Below are positions 50,936-61,471 of a DNA stretch of 64,000 nucleotides, piece after piece. The stretch comes from an uncultured bacterium (GTDB taxonomy: Bacteria > DYJV01), in NCBI GenBank assembly GCA_964543655.1, contig CAZIZE010000063.1:23020-87019 (forward strand), given 5' to 3'. Position 1 is the stretch's first letter. Each line of letters starts with the position of its first letter. The position numbers and the translations under genes are program-made. The notes beneath the pieces are model-generated. The model saw nothing but the letters and a program-made list of their open reading frames with translations, was not told the DNA's origin and made no database searches.

Positions 50936-53194
50936 ATGTATCTTAACGAGAGGCAAAAGATTGTTCTTGAACGAAGAATTTTACTTAGAAATGAAAAAGG
51001 AGAAGTAGTAGAAACACCAATTGAAATGTTCAGACGAGTTGCTAATTATGTGGCAAAAGCTGAAAAAGAAAGTAAAAAGCAGAAAGAGTATGAAAAAAAA
51101 TTTTTTGAAGTTATGACCAATCTTGATTTTTTACCAAACAGCCCCTGCCTTGTTAATGCTGGAGTGCCAGGTAGAAAGCATCAGCTTGCTGCATGTTTTG
51201 TTCTTGTTGTTGATGATGAAATAGAGAATATATATGAGACATTGAAACATGCTGCTATTATTCATAAAACAGGGGGAGGCACAGGATTTGATTTTTCAAA
51301 AATAAGGCCAGAAGGTGCTATTGTTAATACTACTAAAGGTATTGCATCTGGTCCTGTTTCATTTATGAAAATATATGATGTATCAACTGAGCAAATTAAA
51401 CAGGGAGGAGTTAGAAGAGGTGCAAATATAGGAGTTTTGAGAGTTGACCATCCTGATGTGTTGAAGTTTATTGAAGCTAAAAAAGGCAAAGATTGTCTTA
51501 AAAATTTTAATCTCTCTGTAGCAATAACTGATGAGTTTATTAAAGCAGTTAAGGATGATGATGAGTTTGAGTTGAAACATGAGCATTTTGATAAGACAAT
51601 AAAAGTTAGAGCAAGAGATTTGTGGGATAAAATTGTTAAGAATGCTCATGGTACAGGTGACCCAGGACTTTTATTTATTGATAGAATTAATGAGCTACAT
51701 CCTGTTGCAAATTATGAAATTAGAGCAACTAATCCATGTGGAGAAACTGTTCTTGCTGATGGTGAATTGTGCTGTCTTGGAAGTATAAACCTTTCAAATT
51801 TTTACAATGCAGAAAAGCATTCAATTGATTACAGTAGGCTTGCAGATGTTGTTTCAATTGGTATTAGGTTTCTTGACAATATACTTGATGTAAATGATTA
51901 TCCTCTTGAAAAAATAAAGAAAGTTACACTTGATAATAGAAAAATTGGTCTTGGAGTTATGGGATGGGCTGACCTATTAATAAAATTGAAAATACCATAC
52001 AATTCAGAGGAAGCAATAGAACTTGGTGAAGAAGTTATGAGCTTTATTCTTACTGAAGCTGCAAGGACAAGTTATGAACTTGGGAAAGAAAAAGGGGCTT
52101 TTCCAAATGTGAAAAATTATAAACCTTATCCTGCAATTAAAAACATAATTAAGAATAAACTTGGGTTGAAAATAGATGAATATAAACCAAGAAATGCTAC
52201 TCTCACAGCAATTGCACCTACAGGTACTCTCTCTATAATTGCAAATTGTTCATCTGGTATTGAGCCTGTTTTCTCATTTGAAACTTTGGAAAGAAGAGTT
52301 GATACAGAGATTGTTCATTACCATCCTCTTTACAAAGAGTGGATAGAGAACCATTCTGAGGAGGATAAACCAGATTATTTTGTTACAGCTCATGATGTGC
52401 CTGTTGATTACCATATTAGAATGCAGGCAGCATTTCAGAAATTTAACTGTAACTCAGTTTCAAAAACTATTAATCTTCACAGAGGTGCATCAGAGCAAGA
52501 AGTTTATGATGCTTTTATTAAAGCGTACGATTATGGATGTAAGGGGATTACTGTGTATGTTGATGGAAGCCTTGAAGGTCAGACTCTTTCAATAAAATCA
52601 GAAGCAGAGATGGAAGAGATTCCAGCATGGTTAAAAGAGTATGTTGATGAATACAAAGAAAATGGTGAGGAAGAAGTTGTTGAGTTTATTAAGAAAAATT
52701 ATAATCATCCATTTTTTACAAATGGTTTAAAGCCAATTCAAAGAATTGACCATTTACAGGGTATTACATATAGGATAAAAACAGGTTATGGTAACTTATA
52801 TGTAACAATAAATGAACTTACAGGTAAACCATTTGAAGTGTTCTGCCAGATTGGTAGAAGTGGTGCAAGTGAGCTTGCTAAAGCAGAAGCTGTTGGTAAA
52901 CTTGTATCTCTTGCACTAAGAAGTGGAATCCAACTTGAATACATTATAGAGCAGATAGATGATATTATGGGTAGCCAGCCTATTATTACAAAGCAGGGAT
53001 ACATTAAATCAATTCCAGATGCTATGGCTAAAGTTTTAAAAGAGTATATGGAAAAAAGGCAGAAAAAACAGGTTAAGTCTAAAATAGCCCCAAAAATAGG
53101 TAAGCAGATATGTCCAGAATGTGGAAATGACCTTATCCCTGATAGTAGGTGTCCATATTGTAGTGTTTGTGGGTGGAAAAGTTGCGGTGGTTAA
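50936..53194 (+). CDS. nrdJ: Class II (adenosylcobalamin-dependent) ribonucleotide reductase NrdJ with C-terminal zinc ribbon
   Basis: Class II RNR motifs (NSPCLVNAGV, ACFVL, TNPCGE, thiyl-radical loop) and CPECGNDLIPDSRCPYCSVCGW. Confidence 0.9.
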   Translation: MYLNERQKIVLERRILLRNEKGEVVETPIEMFRRVANYVAKAEKESKKQKEYEKKFFEVMTNLDFLPNSPCLVNAGVPGRKHQLAACFVLVVDDEIENIYETLKHAAIIHKTGGGTGFDFSKIRPEGAIVNTTKGIASGPVSFMKIYDVSTEQIKQGGVRRGANIGVLRVDHPDVLKFIEAKKGKDCLKNFNLSVAITDEFIKAVKDDDEFELKHEHFDKTIKVRARDLWDKIVKNAHGTGDPGLLFIDRINELHPVANYEIRATNPCGETVLADGELCCLGSINLSNFYNAEKHSIDYSRLADVVSIGIRFLDNILDVNDYPLEKIKKVTLDNRKIGLGVMGWADLLIKLKIPYNSEEAIELGEEVMSFILTEAARTSYELGKEKGAFPNVKNYKPYPAIKNIIKNKLGLKIDEYKPRNATLTAIAPTGTLSIIANCSSGIEPVFSFETLERRVDTEIVHYHPLYKEWIENHSEEDKPDYFVTAHDVPVDYHIRMQAAFQKFNCNSVSKTINLHRGASEQEVYDAFIKAYDYGCKGITVYVDGSLEGQTLSIKSEAEMEEIPAWLKEYVDEYKENGEEEVVEFIKKNYNHPFFTNGLKPIQRIDHLQGITYRIKTGYGNLYVTINELTGKPFEVFCQIGRSGASELAKAEAVGKLVSLALRSGIQLEYIIEQIDDIMGSQPIITKQGYIKSIPDAMAKVLKEYMEKRQKKQVKSKIAPKIGKQICPECGNDLIPDSRCPYCSVCGWKSCGG

Positions 53195-53757
53195 TAAGTG
53201 ATATTTTTGAGAAACTTAGAGATATAGATATTATAATAGGTGTAAAATTTGAAAATATTAATTCATTAAAAATTTCTGAAAATATTTTATATATTTCTTT
53301 TTATAGAGGTTTGTTTGGCTTTAATGAAATTAATTATATTAAAGAGATACTTTTTGATAACTTTAATATAACAGAGGCAAAATTTCAACAGGATAAGGAG
53401 AAAATTTTATATCCTTATCCTGTTGTTAATTCAAAATTTAACAATTTCATAACAGAAATTTCTATTGAACAAAATGAGTATATTTTAGAGTTTTTTCAAA
53501 AGGATAATAAGAAACATTATGAAAAATGTAAACATGCTTTTCGCAATATTAATGAATTCCTCACTTATTTATCAAACTATACTTTAAAAAAGGTAAATTT
53601 ATTAGAAGAGCTTTACAGATATAATCAGGTGATTCTCCCTTTTGAGCTTTTTGAAGAAGAAATAGCTTATATTACAGAAAAATGGGAGAGTTTTAGAAGA
53701 AAAGAAAATATAATTAAGTTTGTTGATAAAATTTATTTTAATGTCAAAGGGGGATAG
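53167..53757 (+). CDS. Hypothetical protein (196 aa) with no in-frame ATG, presumably a TTG or GTG start
   Basis: A long open frame is improbable by chance in such AT-rich DNA, but the only possible starts are non-ATG codons overlapping the nrdJ 3' end. Confidence 0.35.
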   Translation: MWVEKLRWLISDIFEKLRDIDIIIGVKFENINSLKISENILYISFYRGLFGFNEINYIKEILFDNFNITEAKFQQDKEKILYPYPVVNSKFNNFITEISIEQNEYILEFFQKDNKKHYEKCKHAFRNINEFLTYLSNYTLKKVNLLEELYRYNQVILPFELFEEEIAYITEKWESFRRKENIIKFVDKIYFNVKGG

Positions 53758-53758
53758 A

Positions 53759-54013
53759 ATGAGCCATCATCACCATCATCACAACCATTCACATGATAAT
53801 TGTACCTCAGAAGAAAAGGGATTAAGAGAAAAGTTAAAAATTTTGGTAGCTCATTGGATGGAGCATAATAATTCACATTTACAAGAGTATAAAAAATGGG
53901 AAAACCGAGCAAAAGAAGAGGGAGAAATAGACCTTGCTGAGATTTTAAAAGAAGTTTGCGAAAAAGTAAAAGAGATAGATATGCTTTACAAAGAGTTAGA
54001 AAAGTTATTATAA
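53759..54013 (+). CDS. Small His-rich protein (MSHHHHHHNHSHDNC..., 84 aa), putative metal-binding
   Basis: SD AAAGGGGGA 5 nt upstream of the ATG; a native run of 6 His plus HxH and Cys at the N-terminus, then a helical tail. Confidence 0.45.
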   Translation: MSHHHHHHNHSHDNCTSEEKGLREKLKILVAHWMEHNNSHLQEYKKWENRAKEEGEIDLAEILKEVCEKVKEIDMLYKELEKLL

Positions 54014-54023
54014 AAATTCAATA

Positions 54024-55577
54024 ATGAAAAAAGTAGAAAATCATCTGATTTTAAATATTACCCGAATGGGTGATATTATTCAATCAGCACCTTTATTAAC
54101 TAATCTTAAAAAAAAAGGTGTAAAGATAAGCTACCTTTTGTTGAGCAATTTTAAAGAAACAGCTACACTTATCCCTGAAATTGATGAAATAATAGAGCTT
54201 GATTTCAGCTCATTGCTTGAAGCAATTGACAGATTTGATTTTGCCACTGCTTTTAATTATTTTAAATATTTTGAAGAAGATTTATTAAAAATAAAATTTA
54301 AAAAATTATATAATCTTTCCTTTTCAAAATTAAGTGCATACCTTTCATATTTTATAAACTCTGATTATAAAAAAGGATTAATTTTCAAAAGAAGTAATGA
54401 ATTTGTTGCAAATGATAACTGGAGTAGATTTTTTTTATCAATAGTAGATTACAGAGAGTTTTCTCCATTTAATCTTGTAGATATTTATTCTATGATTGGT
54501 TCAGCAAATAGTGGAAATATTTTTATTGAAAGAATTGATAATAAAGAGAGCCTGAAAATAGGTTTTGTTATGGGTGCTTCATCGTATGATAGACGTTGGT
54601 CTCCTGAAAATTTTGCTATATTAGCAGAAAAGATTTTAAAAGAATTTCCATTAAGCAGGATAATTTTATTTGGTACAAAATCTGAAAAAGAGCTTGGAGA
54701 AAGATTTTTTAAATACTTTAAGTTCGATAAAGGGAACATAGTGGATTTGATTGGTAAGACAACTGTAAAAGAATTGGCTGAAGAGATAAAAAATATAGAT
54801 ATTCTCATAACAAATGACACAGGTACAATGCATTTAGCATGGTATTTTGGAAAAAGGGTTATTGAGTTATCACTTGGTCCAGCTCTCTATAACACAACAG
54901 GTCCTTATGGAGATGGACACATTGTAGTGCAGCCTGAAATCGATTGTGTTCCATGCAGTTATAAAACAAAGTGTAAAACATTGCATTGCCATAAATTAAT
55001 ATCAGCAGATGTTGTTATGCAATGCTTGAGATTTTTATTAAAAGAAGAGAGAAATTTTTCTTCATGTAATAATGTGAAAATATTGGAAACTTATTTTGAC
55101 AGAAAAGGTTTTCTCAGTTTCAAACTAATTCATGGAAAAAAAACAAAAGATATAGAGTTGAGAGAATTATTGAAAGATATATGGATTGATACTTTAGAAA
55201 AGTGTTTGAAAAAAAATGAAAAATATATTATTAATAGAGAAGCGCGATTTTACCTTATTTACAAATATATTTCAAATATTAAAAAGATAATAGAGAATTG
55301 CTTAAATTATATTGAAAAAAATAGAATTGATGATGTGGAAGGCAGTATTGAGTTACTTTACAATATTGATTATGAGCTGAGAAATCTTATTTACAGTAAC
55401 TATAAAGAGTTAATTCCATTTTATAAATACTTTGAATTTAGTAAAAATTTATTATCAGAAACAGATTTGAAATATAATCTAAAGTCATTAAAGTATTTGT
55501 ACGATATTTTACTATGGCAAATTAAGATGTTAGAATATAAAAATTTAAATGGAGGAGAGTATGAAAGTTTATCTTGA
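54024..55577 (+). CDS. GT9-family (heptosyltransferase-like) glycosyltransferase with a roughly 170-aa C-terminal extension
   Basis: N-terminal ILNITRMGDIIQSAPLL and central GKTTVKELAEEIKNIDILITNDTGTMHLAWYFGKRVIELSLGP resemble ADP-heptose:LPS heptosyltransferase motifs. Confidence 0.55.
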   Translation: MKKVENHLILNITRMGDIIQSAPLLTNLKKKGVKISYLLLSNFKETATLIPEIDEIIELDFSSLLEAIDRFDFATAFNYFKYFEEDLLKIKFKKLYNLSFSKLSAYLSYFINSDYKKGLIFKRSNEFVANDNWSRFFLSIVDYREFSPFNLVDIYSMIGSANSGNIFIERIDNKESLKIGFVMGASSYDRRWSPENFAILAEKILKEFPLSRIILFGTKSEKELGERFFKYFKFDKGNIVDLIGKTTVKELAEEIKNIDILITNDTGTMHLAWYFGKRVIELSLGPALYNTTGPYGDGHIVVQPEIDCVPCSYKTKCKTLHCHKLISADVVMQCLRFLLKEERNFSSCNNVKILETYFDRKGFLSFKLIHGKKTKDIELRELLKDIWIDTLEKCLKKNEKYIINREARFYLIYKYISNIKKIIENCLNYIEKNRIDDVEGSIELLYNIDYELRNLIYSNYKELIPFYKYFEFSKNLLSETDLKYNLKSLKYLYDILLWQIKMLEYKNLNGGEYESLS

Positions 55578-56181
55578 TAACCAGCAGATAGAAGTTGATG
55601 TTAACAAATTTAATAATTTAGAGGATCTTATTTATGAAGTAATGAGTAAGTTTATTCCAGGTGATAGATTGTTGGTTGAAGTAAAAGTTAATGATGTAAC
55701 TTTTTCTGAGAGATGGCCTGGAGAAGCTAAAATAGTCCCTCTTGATAAAATAGTGAAATTAGATTTTCTCACTGTTCCAATAGAAGAAGCTGCATCTAAA
55801 ATGCTTGATGATTTACCGGCTCAGATAGATATGATTCATAAGGGATTGTTAGAAGCAGCAGAGCTTTACAGAGTTGCAGATGAGCAGGAAGCCAACCTAC
55901 ATTTTGTTAAAATGTTAGCTACATTAAGAGATTTTGTAAGTTTTATTACTCAGCTTAGGAAAGCAAATATTATTAATTGGGATAAACTTAATATTGATGG
56001 TATGGAAATAGAAACTCATTATGAAAAACTTAATAAATTAATAGATGAGATGCTTGATGTTCAGGAAGATGAAGATTGGATTTTACTTGCTGATCTTATT
56101 GAATATGAATTAAATCCAATAATGATAAAATGGAAAGAGTTTTTAGAGCAGGCAAATAGGCATTTAAAAGAAAAAATATGA
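55561..56181 (+). CDS. Hypothetical protein (about 206 aa)
   Basis: GGAGGAG Shine-Dalgarno 7 nt before the ATG at 55561; no recognisable domain. Confidence 0.4.
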   Translation: MKVYLDNQQIEVDVNKFNNLEDLIYEVMSKFIPGDRLLVEVKVNDVTFSERWPGEAKIVPLDKIVKLDFLTVPIEEAASKMLDDLPAQIDMIHKGLLEAAELYRVADEQEANLHFVKMLATLRDFVSFITQLRKANIINWDKLNIDGMEIETHYEKLNKLIDEMLDVQEDEDWILLADLIEYELNPIMIKWKEFLEQANRHLKEKI

Positions 56182-58073
56182 AAGAAGTAGTTTATAAAGG
56201 ACATGGCCAAATAGAGAATTACTCTATTGATTCTGCTCTATGGGGTGTTGTTGCCCATGAGCAGAGGCATGCAAATTTTAACAGATATATTTCATCAATA
56301 AAAAATGAAGAAGTAGATCAAGATGTTAAAATTACCATTCAATTTGAAGATGGCAAACCTGTACCAGTAAAAGCCTACACAGAAGCTAAATTTGACAAAA
56401 ATAGTAAAAAAGAAGAAGATTTTTTAAAAGTATTATTTTTAAATTTTCAAATTTCAAAAACCAAAAAAGAAATAGAAAATACTGAAAATAAAGATAGAAG
56501 AATAGAACTATACATTAAACTGAGAGACTATGAGCAGCAACTTGAAAACTTAAAAAAGAGATTATTTATTTCTGACAAAACGGAATATAAAAAAGATAAT
56601 GCCCAATTTTATGGTATTTACGATTTCCAGAAATATAACATTCCACCTGTTAGATTAACAGACCCTTTTTTATCAGGTTATGAAGTTAACCAATTGTTAA
56701 AAGATGCTTATCTTAAAGATAGCTCCTCTACAGCAATGCCTGAGAAATTAATATATCAGAATAAGAATTACAAAGATTATGTTGTTAATGCATTGGAAGA
56801 GCTTTATAGAAAATTTTTGGATTTAGATTCATTTTTAAATGATTATAATTTTCAATTTTATCAAGCTAAATCAAACGATTATTTTAATTTAGTTATTACA
56901 GATAATTACAATGATGGAGAAAAGGAATTTAAGATAAATATTAAAAGCATTGCAAAATCATTTATAGTGTATTCGAAAAAATTTTTTGATCCTTATGAAG
57001 CTCTTGGGATAAGTGGTAGTTTTAAGTTAAATGGAGTAGAAATAGATGTTGATACTACAGATTCACTTTATGATATTGTTGAAAAGATAAACTGGGGTGA
57101 AGATACCAATCACAATGGTGTTCTTGATTATGATCTTGGAGAAGATGTTAATAATAATCAGCAGTTAGATGGTGGGACATCTGATCATGGGATATATGCT
57201 TATATTGAAAATAACAGATTGTTTTTAAAAAATTTTGAAACAGGAGATAAAACCATTGTAATAGATGATTCAGATAATATTTTACACAATTTTAACATTA
57301 TAGCTGAAAATCCTGATGATGATTCATATTATTTCCCAAATATTTTTCAAAAGGGCACAAATGCAGATGTTGTTATTAATGGAAAAGAAATCTCTTCTGT
57401 TTCAAATCTTATTTCATACAATGGAATGTTATTTAATTTAAAGCATGTTACCAATGGTGATTATACTCTTAAAATTAATGCTGATAATGATACTGTTTTT
57501 AATAAAATTAAAATGTTTGTTAATGAGTACAACAGAGTAATTAAAGATTTAAATGAAAAATTAGAAGATGATAATTTTACCAAATCTTTTGTTGTATTAA
57601 AGATGAAGAGGGAGCTTACAGAGGCAGTATTTTCTGATGTTAAAAATATTGATGTAACAGATATAGGATTTAATTTATTAGATGAGAAAAATTATATTAC
57701 CCCTTTGCAACTAAGAGATCTTACTAATAAAAAATTTAATTTAAGCTTACACGATTTACTATATTCTATTGGTATTAAAAATAACAATGATGAAACAATT
57801 GAGATAGATGAAGACACATTAAAAAATTCTATAAAAAAGAATAAAAGTGGAGTGTATAATCTATTTTTTTCTGAAAATGGAGTGGTAAATAGATTAAAAG
57901 AAGTTGTAAACAAAGTGATTAATACAGATAATGGAATGATAGCAAATGAAATCAGCCAGATCTCCTCAGAAAAATTATCAGAAATATTCAAGCTTTATGA
58001 AAAAGAAAAGGTTTATGCTCAATACTATGCTGAAAAATTAGGAACAATTAATGAAATAATAACATTAAAATAG
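56178..58073 (+). CDS. Hypothetical large protein (631 aa) with two dockerin/EF-hand-like Ca-binding loop motifs
   Basis: DTNHNGVLDYD and DVNNNQQLDGGTSD match the DxNxNGxxD loop pattern; otherwise no assignable domain. Start overlaps the previous gene by 4 nt. Confidence 0.4.
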   Translation: MKEVVYKGHGQIENYSIDSALWGVVAHEQRHANFNRYISSIKNEEVDQDVKITIQFEDGKPVPVKAYTEAKFDKNSKKEEDFLKVLFLNFQISKTKKEIENTENKDRRIELYIKLRDYEQQLENLKKRLFISDKTEYKKDNAQFYGIYDFQKYNIPPVRLTDPFLSGYEVNQLLKDAYLKDSSSTAMPEKLIYQNKNYKDYVVNALEELYRKFLDLDSFLNDYNFQFYQAKSNDYFNLVITDNYNDGEKEFKINIKSIAKSFIVYSKKFFDPYEALGISGSFKLNGVEIDVDTTDSLYDIVEKINWGEDTNHNGVLDYDLGEDVNNNQQLDGGTSDHGIYAYIENNRLFLKNFETGDKTIVIDDSDNILHNFNIIAENPDDDSYYFPNIFQKGTNADVVINGKEISSVSNLISYNGMLFNLKHVTNGDYTLKINADNDTVFNKIKMFVNEYNRVIKDLNEKLEDDNFTKSFVVLKMKRELTEAVFSDVKNIDVTDIGFNLLDEKNYITPLQLRDLTNKKFNLSLHDLLYSIGIKNNNDETIEIDEDTLKNSIKKNKSGVYNLFFSENGVVNRLKEVVNKVINTDNGMIANEISQISSEKLSEIFKLYEKEKVYAQYYAEKLGTINEIITLK

Positions 58074-58082
58074 GATTTTAAA

Positions 58083-58508
58083 GTGAAAGAAAAATTTTTA
58101 ATTATTATAGATGAGGAAAAGAAAATTTACAATGAGATTTACTCGTTAAATTTGACACTTTTAAACAAAGTTAAAAGTTTTGAATTTGAGGAATTTAAAA
58201 AAGATGTTTTAAAGAAAGATAAACTTATTAATGAGCTTCAAAATTTTGACAAAGAATTGATGAATTTATGGCGCAACTGGGAAGAATATAAAGAGCTGTT
58301 TTCTGAAAATGAGAAAAATAATATTAGGGAATTAAAATCATTAATGGAGAAAAATTTTGAAATTGAAAATATAATAATTTCTGAATTTGAAAAATTAATG
58401 GAAAAAGAGAAAACAAAAAATAAGCATATTCAGAAAGGTAAAGCAGCTTTTAATGCTTATAAAACCAAAAAAGTATCATTCCCATATTTTGTAAATGAAA
58501 AGGGTTAA
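58083..58508 (+). CDS. Hypothetical coiled-coil protein (141 aa)
   Basis: ORF convergent with fliS; heptad-rich; no domain recognised. Confidence 0.35.
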   Translation: MKEKFLIIIDEEKKIYNEIYSLNLTLLNKVKSFEFEEFKKDVLKKDKLINELQNFDKELMNLWRNWEEYKELFSENEKNNIRELKSLMEKNFEIENIIISEFEKLMEKEKTKNKHIQKGKAAFNAYKTKKVSFPYFVNEKG

Positions 58509-58522
58509 GCGGAAATTTCCGC

Positions 58523-58951
58523 TTATGCCCTTAGTTCTGATAAATTAACTTTTCCTTCTGGTAAGTTAGCAGTTTCTGATTCTTGAGGATTTTTTTTGCT
58601 AATTTCTTCCCATGCTTCTTTTAAAGTATTTAAAATAGAGATTACTTCCATAATCATTTTTTTATTTTTTGAAATATTTGCTTTCACAAGGTAGAAGTAT
58701 AGAAAATTGTAAATTTTTCTCAAATTTACAGCGATTTCACCACCTTCTTTCATATTGAGGGAGTTGTTTAGCTCATCAATAATATCTTGTGCTTTTGAGA
58801 TGTAGATACCCTTATTTGCCATGTCATTTTTTTCCAAATATTGAATGGCTGTTTTTAGGAATGAAATTGCACCATCATAGAGCATTACAACAAGTTTTAA
58901 CCTGTCACTTGTGGTAACCTGCATTTTTTGATAATTCATGTAATTGTTCAT
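58523..58951 (-). CDS. fliS: Flagellin-specific chaperone FliS
   Basis: YQKMQVTTSDRLKLVVMLYDGAISFLKTAI...KAQDIIDELNNSL is canonical FliS. Start moved to the ATG preceded by GGAGGA (MNNYMNYQ...), which removes the 86-nt overlap with fliD. Confidence 0.8.
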   Translation of the reverse strand: MNNYMNYQKMQVTTSDRLKLVVMLYDGAISFLKTAIQYLEKNDMANKGIYISKAQDIIDELNNSLNMKEGGEIAVNLRKIYNFLYFYLVKANISKNKKMIMEVISILNTLKEAWEEISKKNPQESETANLPEGKVNLSELRA

Positions 58952-59006
58952 TTTATCCTCCTGAAAAGTTTTTCCTTTTTCAATTTGTATAGCAATTGAC
59001 GTGCCA

Positions 59007-61442: not shown

Positions 61443-61471
61443 TTTATCGGTAATATTTTCCTATACTTTAA
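61443..61471 (-). promoter_or_regulatory. Sigma-28-type promoter upstream of fliD (TAAAG-N15-ACCGATAA on the minus strand)
   Basis: Reverse complement of 61443-61471 is TTAAAGTATAGGAAAATATTACCGATAAA. Confidence 0.45.

Follow-up and report, generated by a model that had tools for sequence, protein, structure and literature searches.

Six genes between nrdJ and fliS of an uncultured bacterium: a FliD paralog with an HExxH module, a chaperone candidate and a GT9 cassette

A block of six plus-strand open reading frames (ORFs) lies between nrdJ and the flagellar genes fliS and fliD in a 64,000-nucleotide stretch of contig CAZIZE010000063.1 from an uncultured bacterium, referred to here as the window. 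The contig is metagenomic and 101 kb long (ENA ERZ27262694). The position of this block raises the question of whether its genes form one flagellar unit and what they would contribute to a flagellum. A preliminary description made from the sequence alone had suggested a flagellar accessory or glycosylation island, or an unrelated module. We lean towards a composite flagellar accessory locus, acting by the mechanism proposed below and not as one six-gene unit, that is composed of a paralog of the filament cap protein FliD (ORF5), a chaperone (ORF6) and a cassette built around a glycosyltransferase of family GT9 (ORF3 and ORF4).

The six-gene block

The ORF listing and a reading of the junctions bear out the preliminary description of six overlapping or tightly packed plus-strand ORFs from nrdJ to fliS, including the 196-amino-acid (aa) frame without an ATG, the His-rich protein of 84 aa and the GT9-like enzyme with a long C-terminal extension. 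The ORFs are as follows:

53167–53757, plus strand: ORF1, 196 aa; TTG start at 53167 or GTG start at 53173; no Met codon anywhere
53759–54013, plus strand: ORF2, 84 aa; MSHHHHHH start; strong GGGGGA Shine-Dalgarno sequence
54024–55577, plus strand: ORF3, 517 aa; GT9-family GT-B glycosyltransferase with a C-terminal extension
55561–56181, plus strand: ORF4, 206 aa; DUF8043 and DUF8042; GGAGGAG Shine-Dalgarno sequence
56178–58073, plus strand: ORF5, 631 aa; FliD (HAP2) paralog; ATGA start/stop overlap with ORF4
58083–58508, plus strand: ORF6, 141 aa, helical; GTG start after AGGA; FlgN/FliT-type export chaperone candidate

The 5' end of ORF1 overlaps the 3' end of nrdJ by 28 nucleotides (nt), and the overlap of ORF4 and ORF5 together with junctions of 9–17 nt indicates a single operon. 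The G+C content of the block is 26%, at which stop codons are frequent by chance, so that long chance ORFs are very unlikely. The six ORFs are not chance frames, since their order and similar lengths are kept in a relative (loci L003, L008 and L010) at 40–58% identity, with the flanking nrdJ, fliS and fliD 70–79% identical.

ORF5 is a divergent FliD paralog

The gene product of ORF5 matched the FliD_C domain (PF07195) with 72.9 bits against a cut-off of 25.4 (E-value 3.5e-20) over residues 393–599 (57354–57974). The glycosyltransferase is therefore not the only recognisable product of the block, as had been supposed, and ORF2 and ORF4 also fall into named families (DUF8180, and DUF8043 with DUF8042). 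A match of ORF5 to Flagellin_IN was weak and below threshold, and the FliD models of NCBIfam were matched at about 5e-19, well under their equivalog cut-offs. The predicted structure has the D1-D2-D3 fold, with the C-terminal helices kept. These features assign ORF5 to the FliD family as a divergent paralog of the cap protein. Its regions, all on the plus strand, are as follows:

Residues 1–75, 56178–56402: HExxH domain, with HEQRH at 56256–56270
Residues ~78–222: helical linker, putative FliD_N equivalent
Residues 304–334, 57087–57179: D2-D3 Ca-type loops INWGEDTNHNGVLDYDLGEDVNNNQQLDGGT, two loops of the DxNxN type

The head-domain segment INWGEDxNxN...D..GED.N.N..LDGG, which is invariant, corresponds to these two Ca-type loops and agrees with the loops first noted in the preliminary description.

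ORF5 resembles FliD/HAP2 proteins (PF02465, PF07195; structures 5h5v, 6sih and 9gnz) in its FliD_C domain, fold and C-terminal helices, and its gene is likewise near fliS and a chaperone gene. It differs from them in having about 160 extra N-terminal residues that include the invariant HExxH domain, in the two Ca-type loops inserted into its head and in its coexistence with a canonical fliD, which is encoded convergently downstream. The identity between the two products is only about 26% over a 174-residue segment, and ORF5 is therefore an old paralog rather than a recent copy.

The HExxH module and its family

The N-terminal module is a hairpin-helix-hairpin of about 75 residues in which Y6, G8-H9-G10, E13, Y15 and H27-E28-x-R30-H31 are invariant, as judged on 13 homologs of 41–73% identity. 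HExxH and GHG together make a metal-site-like signature. In a comparison with zincin metallopeptidases, the HEQRH sequence of ORF5 lies on a predicted helix, and the invariant H9 and E13 are possible further ligands. A resemblance to PF12118 (SprA-related, 'CJM1_0395 putative metalloprotease') was considered as a lead; neither Pfam nor NCBIfam matched this family in ORF5, in the first 135 residues of ORF5 or in 10 proteins of the module family.

A profile of the module gave 72 matches among 1.84 billion representative proteins. About a dozen of these are FliD-like proteins of 600–870 aa, and in the remaining proteins, of 180–340 aa, the module is joined to a coiled coil and a C-terminus that is hydrophobic. 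Contigs could be read for four stand-alone module genes. Two of these genes occur in the order flagellin (638–650 aa), FliW, module gene; for the other two the contigs are short and carry no flagellar genes. The first two (L097:2711–3457 and L100:3725–4480) encode proteins of 248–251 aa directly after fliW and the flagellin-like gene, and in L097 the stand-alone gene is followed by a TPR gene and Pse-type flagellin glycosylation sugar genes.

Among the FliD-like members, P0149 (801 aa, locus L102) is encoded well inside a core flagellar cluster that also contains fliE, flgC and flgB; it lies between fliK-flgD-flgE-maf (the last Maf-like) and fliJ-fliI-fliH-fliG-fliF, with a 135-aa FlgN gene directly 3' of P0149. 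The second example (L005:5146–13835, from a metagenome-assembled genome labelled Nitrospira sp.) encodes a 787-aa HExxH-FliD between NeuB-like, cytidylyltransferase, radical-SAM and GT2 genes and a group of two motA-motB pairs and PilZ; there is no FlgN-like gene 3' of it. Genes of the Maf or nonulosonic-acid type do adjoin HExxH-domain genes in L097, L102 and L005. The FliD_N domain (PF02465) was found in distant relatives with the same N-terminal module (3.2e-10 for the 787-aa protein of L005 and 2.4e-6 for P0016), and it lies about 300 residues into P0015, P0016 and the 787-aa protein. The module has therefore been added at the N-terminus of a FliD that is complete in other respects.

A literature search found no description of a FliD protein with an HExxH module or of the stand-alone module family. 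Flagellinolysin (PMC5595980) is, like ORF5, a flagellar axial-family protein with an HExxH-type module. Its metallopeptidase domain is a recognised one and lies inside the hypervariable region of flagellin, whereas the module of ORF5 is small, unclassified and N-terminal on a FliD paralog, with catalysis only predicted.

ORF6 is a candidate chaperone for ORF5

ORF6 is found directly 3' of ORF5 in every relative, including loci that carry this pair alone. The ORF6 product gave no match to FlgN or FliT in Pfam at E ≤ 1 and none in NCBIfam, its profiles matched nothing among PDB sequences, and it did not match sequences of Salmonella FliT and FlgN. A connection is provided by the 135-aa protein encoded after P0149, which passes the Pfam FlgN threshold (PF05130; 1.5e-12, 48.6 against 30.5 bits) and matches FliT weakly. 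The profile of six ORF6-clade proteins aligned with this FlgN end to end by hhalign (probability 89.3%, E-value 2.1e-6, 134 columns), and a wider alignment of 30 sequences gave 87%. In the small-protein family, FliT (5/30, best 0.0058) and FlgN (3/30, best 0.018) were the most recurrent of the weak Pfam matches, all sub-threshold, and an NCBIfam scan of the family gave nothing. The C-terminal motif of ORF6 is NAY-x10-FVNEKG, with the family form (A/G)Y-x8-13-F[IV]N/S-K-G.

ORF6 is accordingly listed here as a candidate export chaperone of the FlgN/FliT type. Because of the FlgN profile match and its place after ORF5 in every relative, the two genes are read as a cap-paralog/chaperone pair; the binding of ORF5 by ORF6 is putative and is inferred from gene order. 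As in FlgN and FliT (PF05130, PF05400), the product is about 140 aa long, all-helical and encoded right after its presumed substrate. It differs from them in scoring under all Pfam and NCBIfam thresholds and in having its own C-terminal motif, and its match is a profile-profile one to a FlgN that does pass threshold.

ORF3 and ORF4 form a conserved cassette

The gene product of ORF3 matched Glyco_transf_9 (PF01075) at 6e-17 (62.2 bits, cut-off 22) over residues 177–316 and aligned with TIGR02195, the heptosyltransferase II model, over residues 9–339. Its scores fall below all three NCBIfam equivalog cut-offs for the lipopolysaccharide (LPS) heptosyltransferases I, II and III, WaaC, WaaF and WaaQ (63.3 against 134.6 bits for TIGR02195, and 60 against 185.3 and 20.9 against 170.2 bits for the others). 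The best solved relatives are 3tov and 1psw, and the motifs RMGD (residue 14), DRRW (189) and NDTGTMH (264) are intact. On these scores ORF3 is classed as a GT9 enzyme and not as an LPS heptosyltransferase ortholog. Two parts are recognised, both on the plus strand:

Residues 1–~322: GT9 part, ending in CVPCSYKTKCKTLHC (residues 308–322, 54945–54989)
54990–55574: helical extension of ~195 aa, following a CxxC-x6-C-x4-C motif

All 42 cassette GT9 proteins examined carry the Cys motif and an extension of 178–218 aa, for which neither Pfam nor PDB gave a match. Compared with WaaC and WaaF (PF01075, TIGR02193/02195; 1psw, 3tov), ORF3 likewise has a GT-B fold over residues 9–339 and the motifs GD, (K/R)RW and D(S/T)GxMH. 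It differs in reaching less than half of the equivalog cut-offs, in the extension that follows the CxxC...C...C motif and in its obligate DUF8043/8042 neighbour.

This neighbour, ORF4, belongs to DUF8043 and DUF8042 by precomputed Pfam assignment. Its model (pLDDT 86) has a small alpha/beta N-terminal domain (residues 1–73) and a four-helix bundle (residues 74–205), a fold too generic to classify. FlaG (PF03646) was considered for ORF4 and gave no match at E ≤ 1, so that ORF4 is FlaG-like in position only. A profile search found 1763 homologs, all annotated as hypothetical and mostly from Desulfovibrionales, with genera including Pseudodesulfovibrio, Nitratidesulfovibrio, Oleidesulfovibrio and Desulfonauticus. 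Of 80 metagenome loci, 71 had room for an upstream gene, and in 68 of these the DUF804x gene is immediately preceded, on the same strand, by the extended GT9; the three loci without it are all from the clade of the window. In 56 of the 68, the next gene after the DUF804x gene is a small ORF6-like one. By conserved gene order, ORF3 and ORF4 thus make up a near-obligate pair across phyla, usually with an ORF6-like small gene, and the FliD paralog stands between ORF4 and the small gene in the window's clade only.

In one distant locus, L032:10995–13601, another GT9, shorter at 413 aa, comes after the cassette together with a protein that has both Glyco_trans_1_2 and DUF3880, which suggests that some lineages may make a multi-step glycan. 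In L092:11815–12409 a second, partial DUF804x copy and a second small gene lie about 1.2 kb downstream of the cassette, possibly through duplication in place or through a repeat in the assembly. Nothing was found in the literature on DUF8042, DUF8043, DUF8180, TP0873, the GT9-DUF8043/8042 cassette or a GT9 enzyme in flagellar glycosylation, and the search gave no data on motility for the Desulfovibrio orthologs.

Linkage of the six genes

The linkage of the block splits, on gene order, into three groups: ORF1-ORF2 in the closest relatives, ORF3-ORF4 (with the small gene) across phyla, and ORF5-ORF6. In a second sub-clade the GT9 gene is absent and ORF4-ORF5-ORF6 adjoin a lytic transglycosylase and CheY/CheD/CheR genes, and a third has ORF5-ORF6 only. 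The convergent fliS and fliD are kept in two further relative lineages (L002 and L003/L008). The possibility raised beforehand, that the genes would belong to mundane families without conserved linkage, does not describe this locus: the ORF3-ORF4 and ORF5-ORF6 linkages are both conserved. A flagellar accessory role is retained for ORF5 as a FliD paralog and for ORF6 as a FlgN/FliT-like protein, a pair also found in a core flagellar cluster elsewhere; it is not retained for the block as a single unit, given the breaks in linkage.

Proposed mechanism

In the composite locus favoured here, ORF6 would bind ORF5 in the cytoplasm and bring it to the type III export gate of the flagellum. At the tip of the filament, ORF5 would then build or enter a cap-like structure, either together with canonical FliD or in its place, so that the flagellum would display Ca-binding loops and a metal-dependent domain that is possibly hydrolytic. 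The GT9 enzyme would take a sugar from a nucleotide-sugar and, with ORF4 acting as its partner or adaptor, attach it to a flagellar export substrate that is still chaperone-bound and not yet exported.

The glycosylation of an export substrate by the cassette is inferred, and it would follow the logic of Maf (PMC4065374) and FlmG (bioRxiv 10.1101/2022.03.25.485807), where a cytoplasmic glycosyltransferase likewise acts on a flagellar export substrate before chaperone binding and export. An extra substrate-binding domain on the enzyme is part of the same idea. The system here differs in that its enzyme is a GT9 and not MptE-like or FlmG-type, in that no nonulosonic-acid genes are adjacent and in that its glycan is hypothetical.

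Does the cassette serve the flagellum or the envelope?

An alternative is that the GT9-DUF8043/8042-small gene cassette serves the cell envelope, with a lipid- or polysaccharide-linked acceptor, and that ORF5 was secondarily inserted into an unrelated operon. The characterised close families of ORF3 are all LPS heptosyltransferases, and several observations weigh against a flagellar cassette. In about 30 long loci of the Desulfovibrionales type it is surrounded by genes for RlpA, lytic transglycosylase, GGDEF/EAL and PilZ proteins and by housekeeping genes, and in the loci examined from this order the cassette never adjoins flagellar genes. The DNA upstream of the cassette shows no enrichment of sigma-28 motifs (3 of 41, against about 5 expected), and an excess of sigma-54-like sites there is due mostly to a single lineage. 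In one locus, additional glycosyltransferase genes lie downstream. The window, in its annotated part (~46 kb to the window end), has no sugar-nucleotide, nonulosonic-acid (Pse/Leg) or heptose biosynthesis genes and no Maf or FlmG homolog. The Desulfovibrionales small proteins are weakly related to ORF6 (hhalign E-value 7e-4) and to FlgN (0.015), with one comparison each.

Against an envelope role stands that same weak relationship of the third gene to FlgN/FliT chaperones, a gene which shares its C-terminal motif with ORF6 and in the window's clade is the partner of the FliD paralog. The GT9 enzyme is far under the WaaC/WaaF cut-offs and has a unique extension. ORF4, in addition, adjoins ORF5 in three independent sub-clades and still does so where the GT9 gene is missing. 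An envelope cassette is considered rather unlikely, and the flagellar link of the GT9 cassette is weaker than that of ORF5 and ORF6.

Is ORF5 a cap?

A location of ORF5 as a cap at the filament tip is predicted and uncertain, because a folded domain precedes its N-terminal helices, unlike in known caps. We know of no FliD cap with such a domain in this position, and to our knowledge FliD caps are regarded as purely structural. Another explanation is considered, in which ORF5 is a FliD-derived secreted or tip-displayed enzyme or adhesin, or an intracellular regulator, and the 805-aa FliD does all the capping. The canonical genes and their promoter-like sites, all on the minus strand, are as follows:

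58523–58951, minus strand: fliS, 142 aa, canonical flagellin chaperone; PF02561 1e-38, TIGR00208 2.3e-29
59007–61412/61424, minus strand: canonical fliD, 801/805 aa; FliD_N, Flagellin_IN and FliD_C
61444–61470, minus strand: sigma-28-type promoter-like site TAAAGTATAGGAAAATATTACCGATAA (TAAA-N15-ACCGATAA), near-consensus, ~20–30 nt upstream of the canonical fliD start
58992–59006, minus strand: sigma-54-type element TGGCACGTCAATTGC (TGGCAC-N5-TTGC), in the 55-nt fliD-fliS gap, before fliS

Both genes are on the minus strand, and the block does converge on fliS and fliD as described beforehand. The near-consensus site would give canonical fliD-fliS its own sigma-28-type promoter, and fliS has a predicted RpoN-dependent promoter that may be its own. 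On the plus strand, neither the six genes nor the DNA 5' of them showed a comparable sigma-28-type site, and no sigma-54-like site precedes them, so that sigma-28 control, named in the preliminary description as something to check, was not supported by the motif scan; the six genes may be read through from nrdJ. A sigma-70 scan was uninformative in this AT-rich DNA.

The missing sigma-28-type site counts against the proposed flagellar role, as do three properties of the protein itself. ORF5 has no Pfam FliD_N match at E ≤ 1. The module, across the set of sequences scanned for PF12118, matched nothing in Pfam-A or NCBIfam and no peptidase family, and the confidence of its model is just 60–76. 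The undetected FliD_N, the ~160 extra N-terminal residues, the HExxH signature and the Ca-type loops would all suit a displayed enzyme, and filament proteins with enzymatic activity have a precedent in flagellinolysin, the proteolytic flagellins (PMC5595980).

ORF5 nevertheless keeps the full D1-D2-D3 architecture and the C-terminal helices, and its model has helices at residues 163–222 in the position equivalent to FliD_N, a domain that its distant relatives retain. In the flagellar clusters of L102 and L005 no second fliD was found within 10 kb of the HExxH-FliD gene, which may be the only cap there. A function of ORF5 apart from capping is judged unlikely, and the composite locus with ORF5 as a cap-like protein is preferred.

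Cap proteins, export chaperones and GT9 enzymes are each known kinds of protein, and a new function is possible for the HExxH module and the cassette. We put forward, as a tentative and doubtful proposal, that the module is an undescribed flagellum-associated metal-dependent enzyme domain on FliD cap paralogs or on small post-fliW proteins and, separately, that the GT9-DUF8043/8042-FlgN-like cassette is an undescribed system for glycosylating a flagellar export substrate with a GT9-type sugar before export. If true, a cap paralog with a metal-site domain, shared with genes near fliW and flagellin, would introduce an enzymatic or regulatory element into filament assembly. The locus would also provide a first functional lead for DUF8042, DUF8043 and DUF8180. 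The cassette is present in genetically tractable sulfate reducers (Nitratidesulfovibrio, Oleidesulfovibrio and Pseudodesulfovibrio), and its function and flagellar link are therefore directly testable.

ORF1 and ORF2

ORF1 shares 45% identity, from end to end, with its counterpart in the syntenic L003/L008 loci, where it has the same overlap with nrdJ, and its product had no Pfam, NCBIfam or PDB matches. The ORF2 product has a His6 run that occurs naturally (MSHHHHHHNH), its C-terminal part is helical and conserved, with an HWxEHNxxH motif, and its family is DUF8180 by precomputed Pfam assignment. Matches of its His start (53759–53790) to hundreds of PDB chains are due to expression tags and were set aside as a search artefact. 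The ORF2 homolog at L008:7315–7842 is 175 aa long, with a His/Cys-rich N-terminus of ~108 residues and a C-terminal part that is 46% identical; the metal-binding-looking tail of ORF2 is therefore highly expandable.

Neither gene was found in the 80 further metagenome loci, and both occur in the window and in the L003/L008 lineage only, so by their distribution ORF1 and ORF2 are lineage-specific and confined to the closest relatives. A single flagellar glycosylation island of all six genes, which would fit the tight packing with overlaps, the synteny of the whole block in one relative lineage and a glycosyltransferase next to flagellar genes, is the least supported explanation and very improbable, as ORF1 and ORF2 are missing from all other loci with ORF3-ORF6 family genes, relatives carry ORF4-6 without GT9 or ORF5-6 alone, and sugar biosynthesis, Maf and FlmG genes are absent from the neighbourhood, as annotated from ~46 kb to the window end.

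Other features of the locus

The spacer between the convergent stop codons of ORF6 and fliS is filled by one element:

58507–58524, no strand: palindrome AAGCGGAAATTTCCGCTT, perfect, 18 nt

This palindrome is likely a bidirectional terminator, as predicted from its position and symmetry; it was unscored in the terminator scan because it is not followed by a T-run. An Rfam scan of the window found one tRNA and nothing else. The L003 record (DYJV01000049.1) is labelled 'Candidatus Methylomirabilis sp.', a label that looks unreliable, and the G+C content of the syntenic locus is ~26–35%. In L008 (15649–17956) the canonical fliD is followed by a partner-switching set of STAS, SpoIIE-phosphatase and anti-sigma-kinase genes, and the window has an aminotransferase gene and gyrA at this position.

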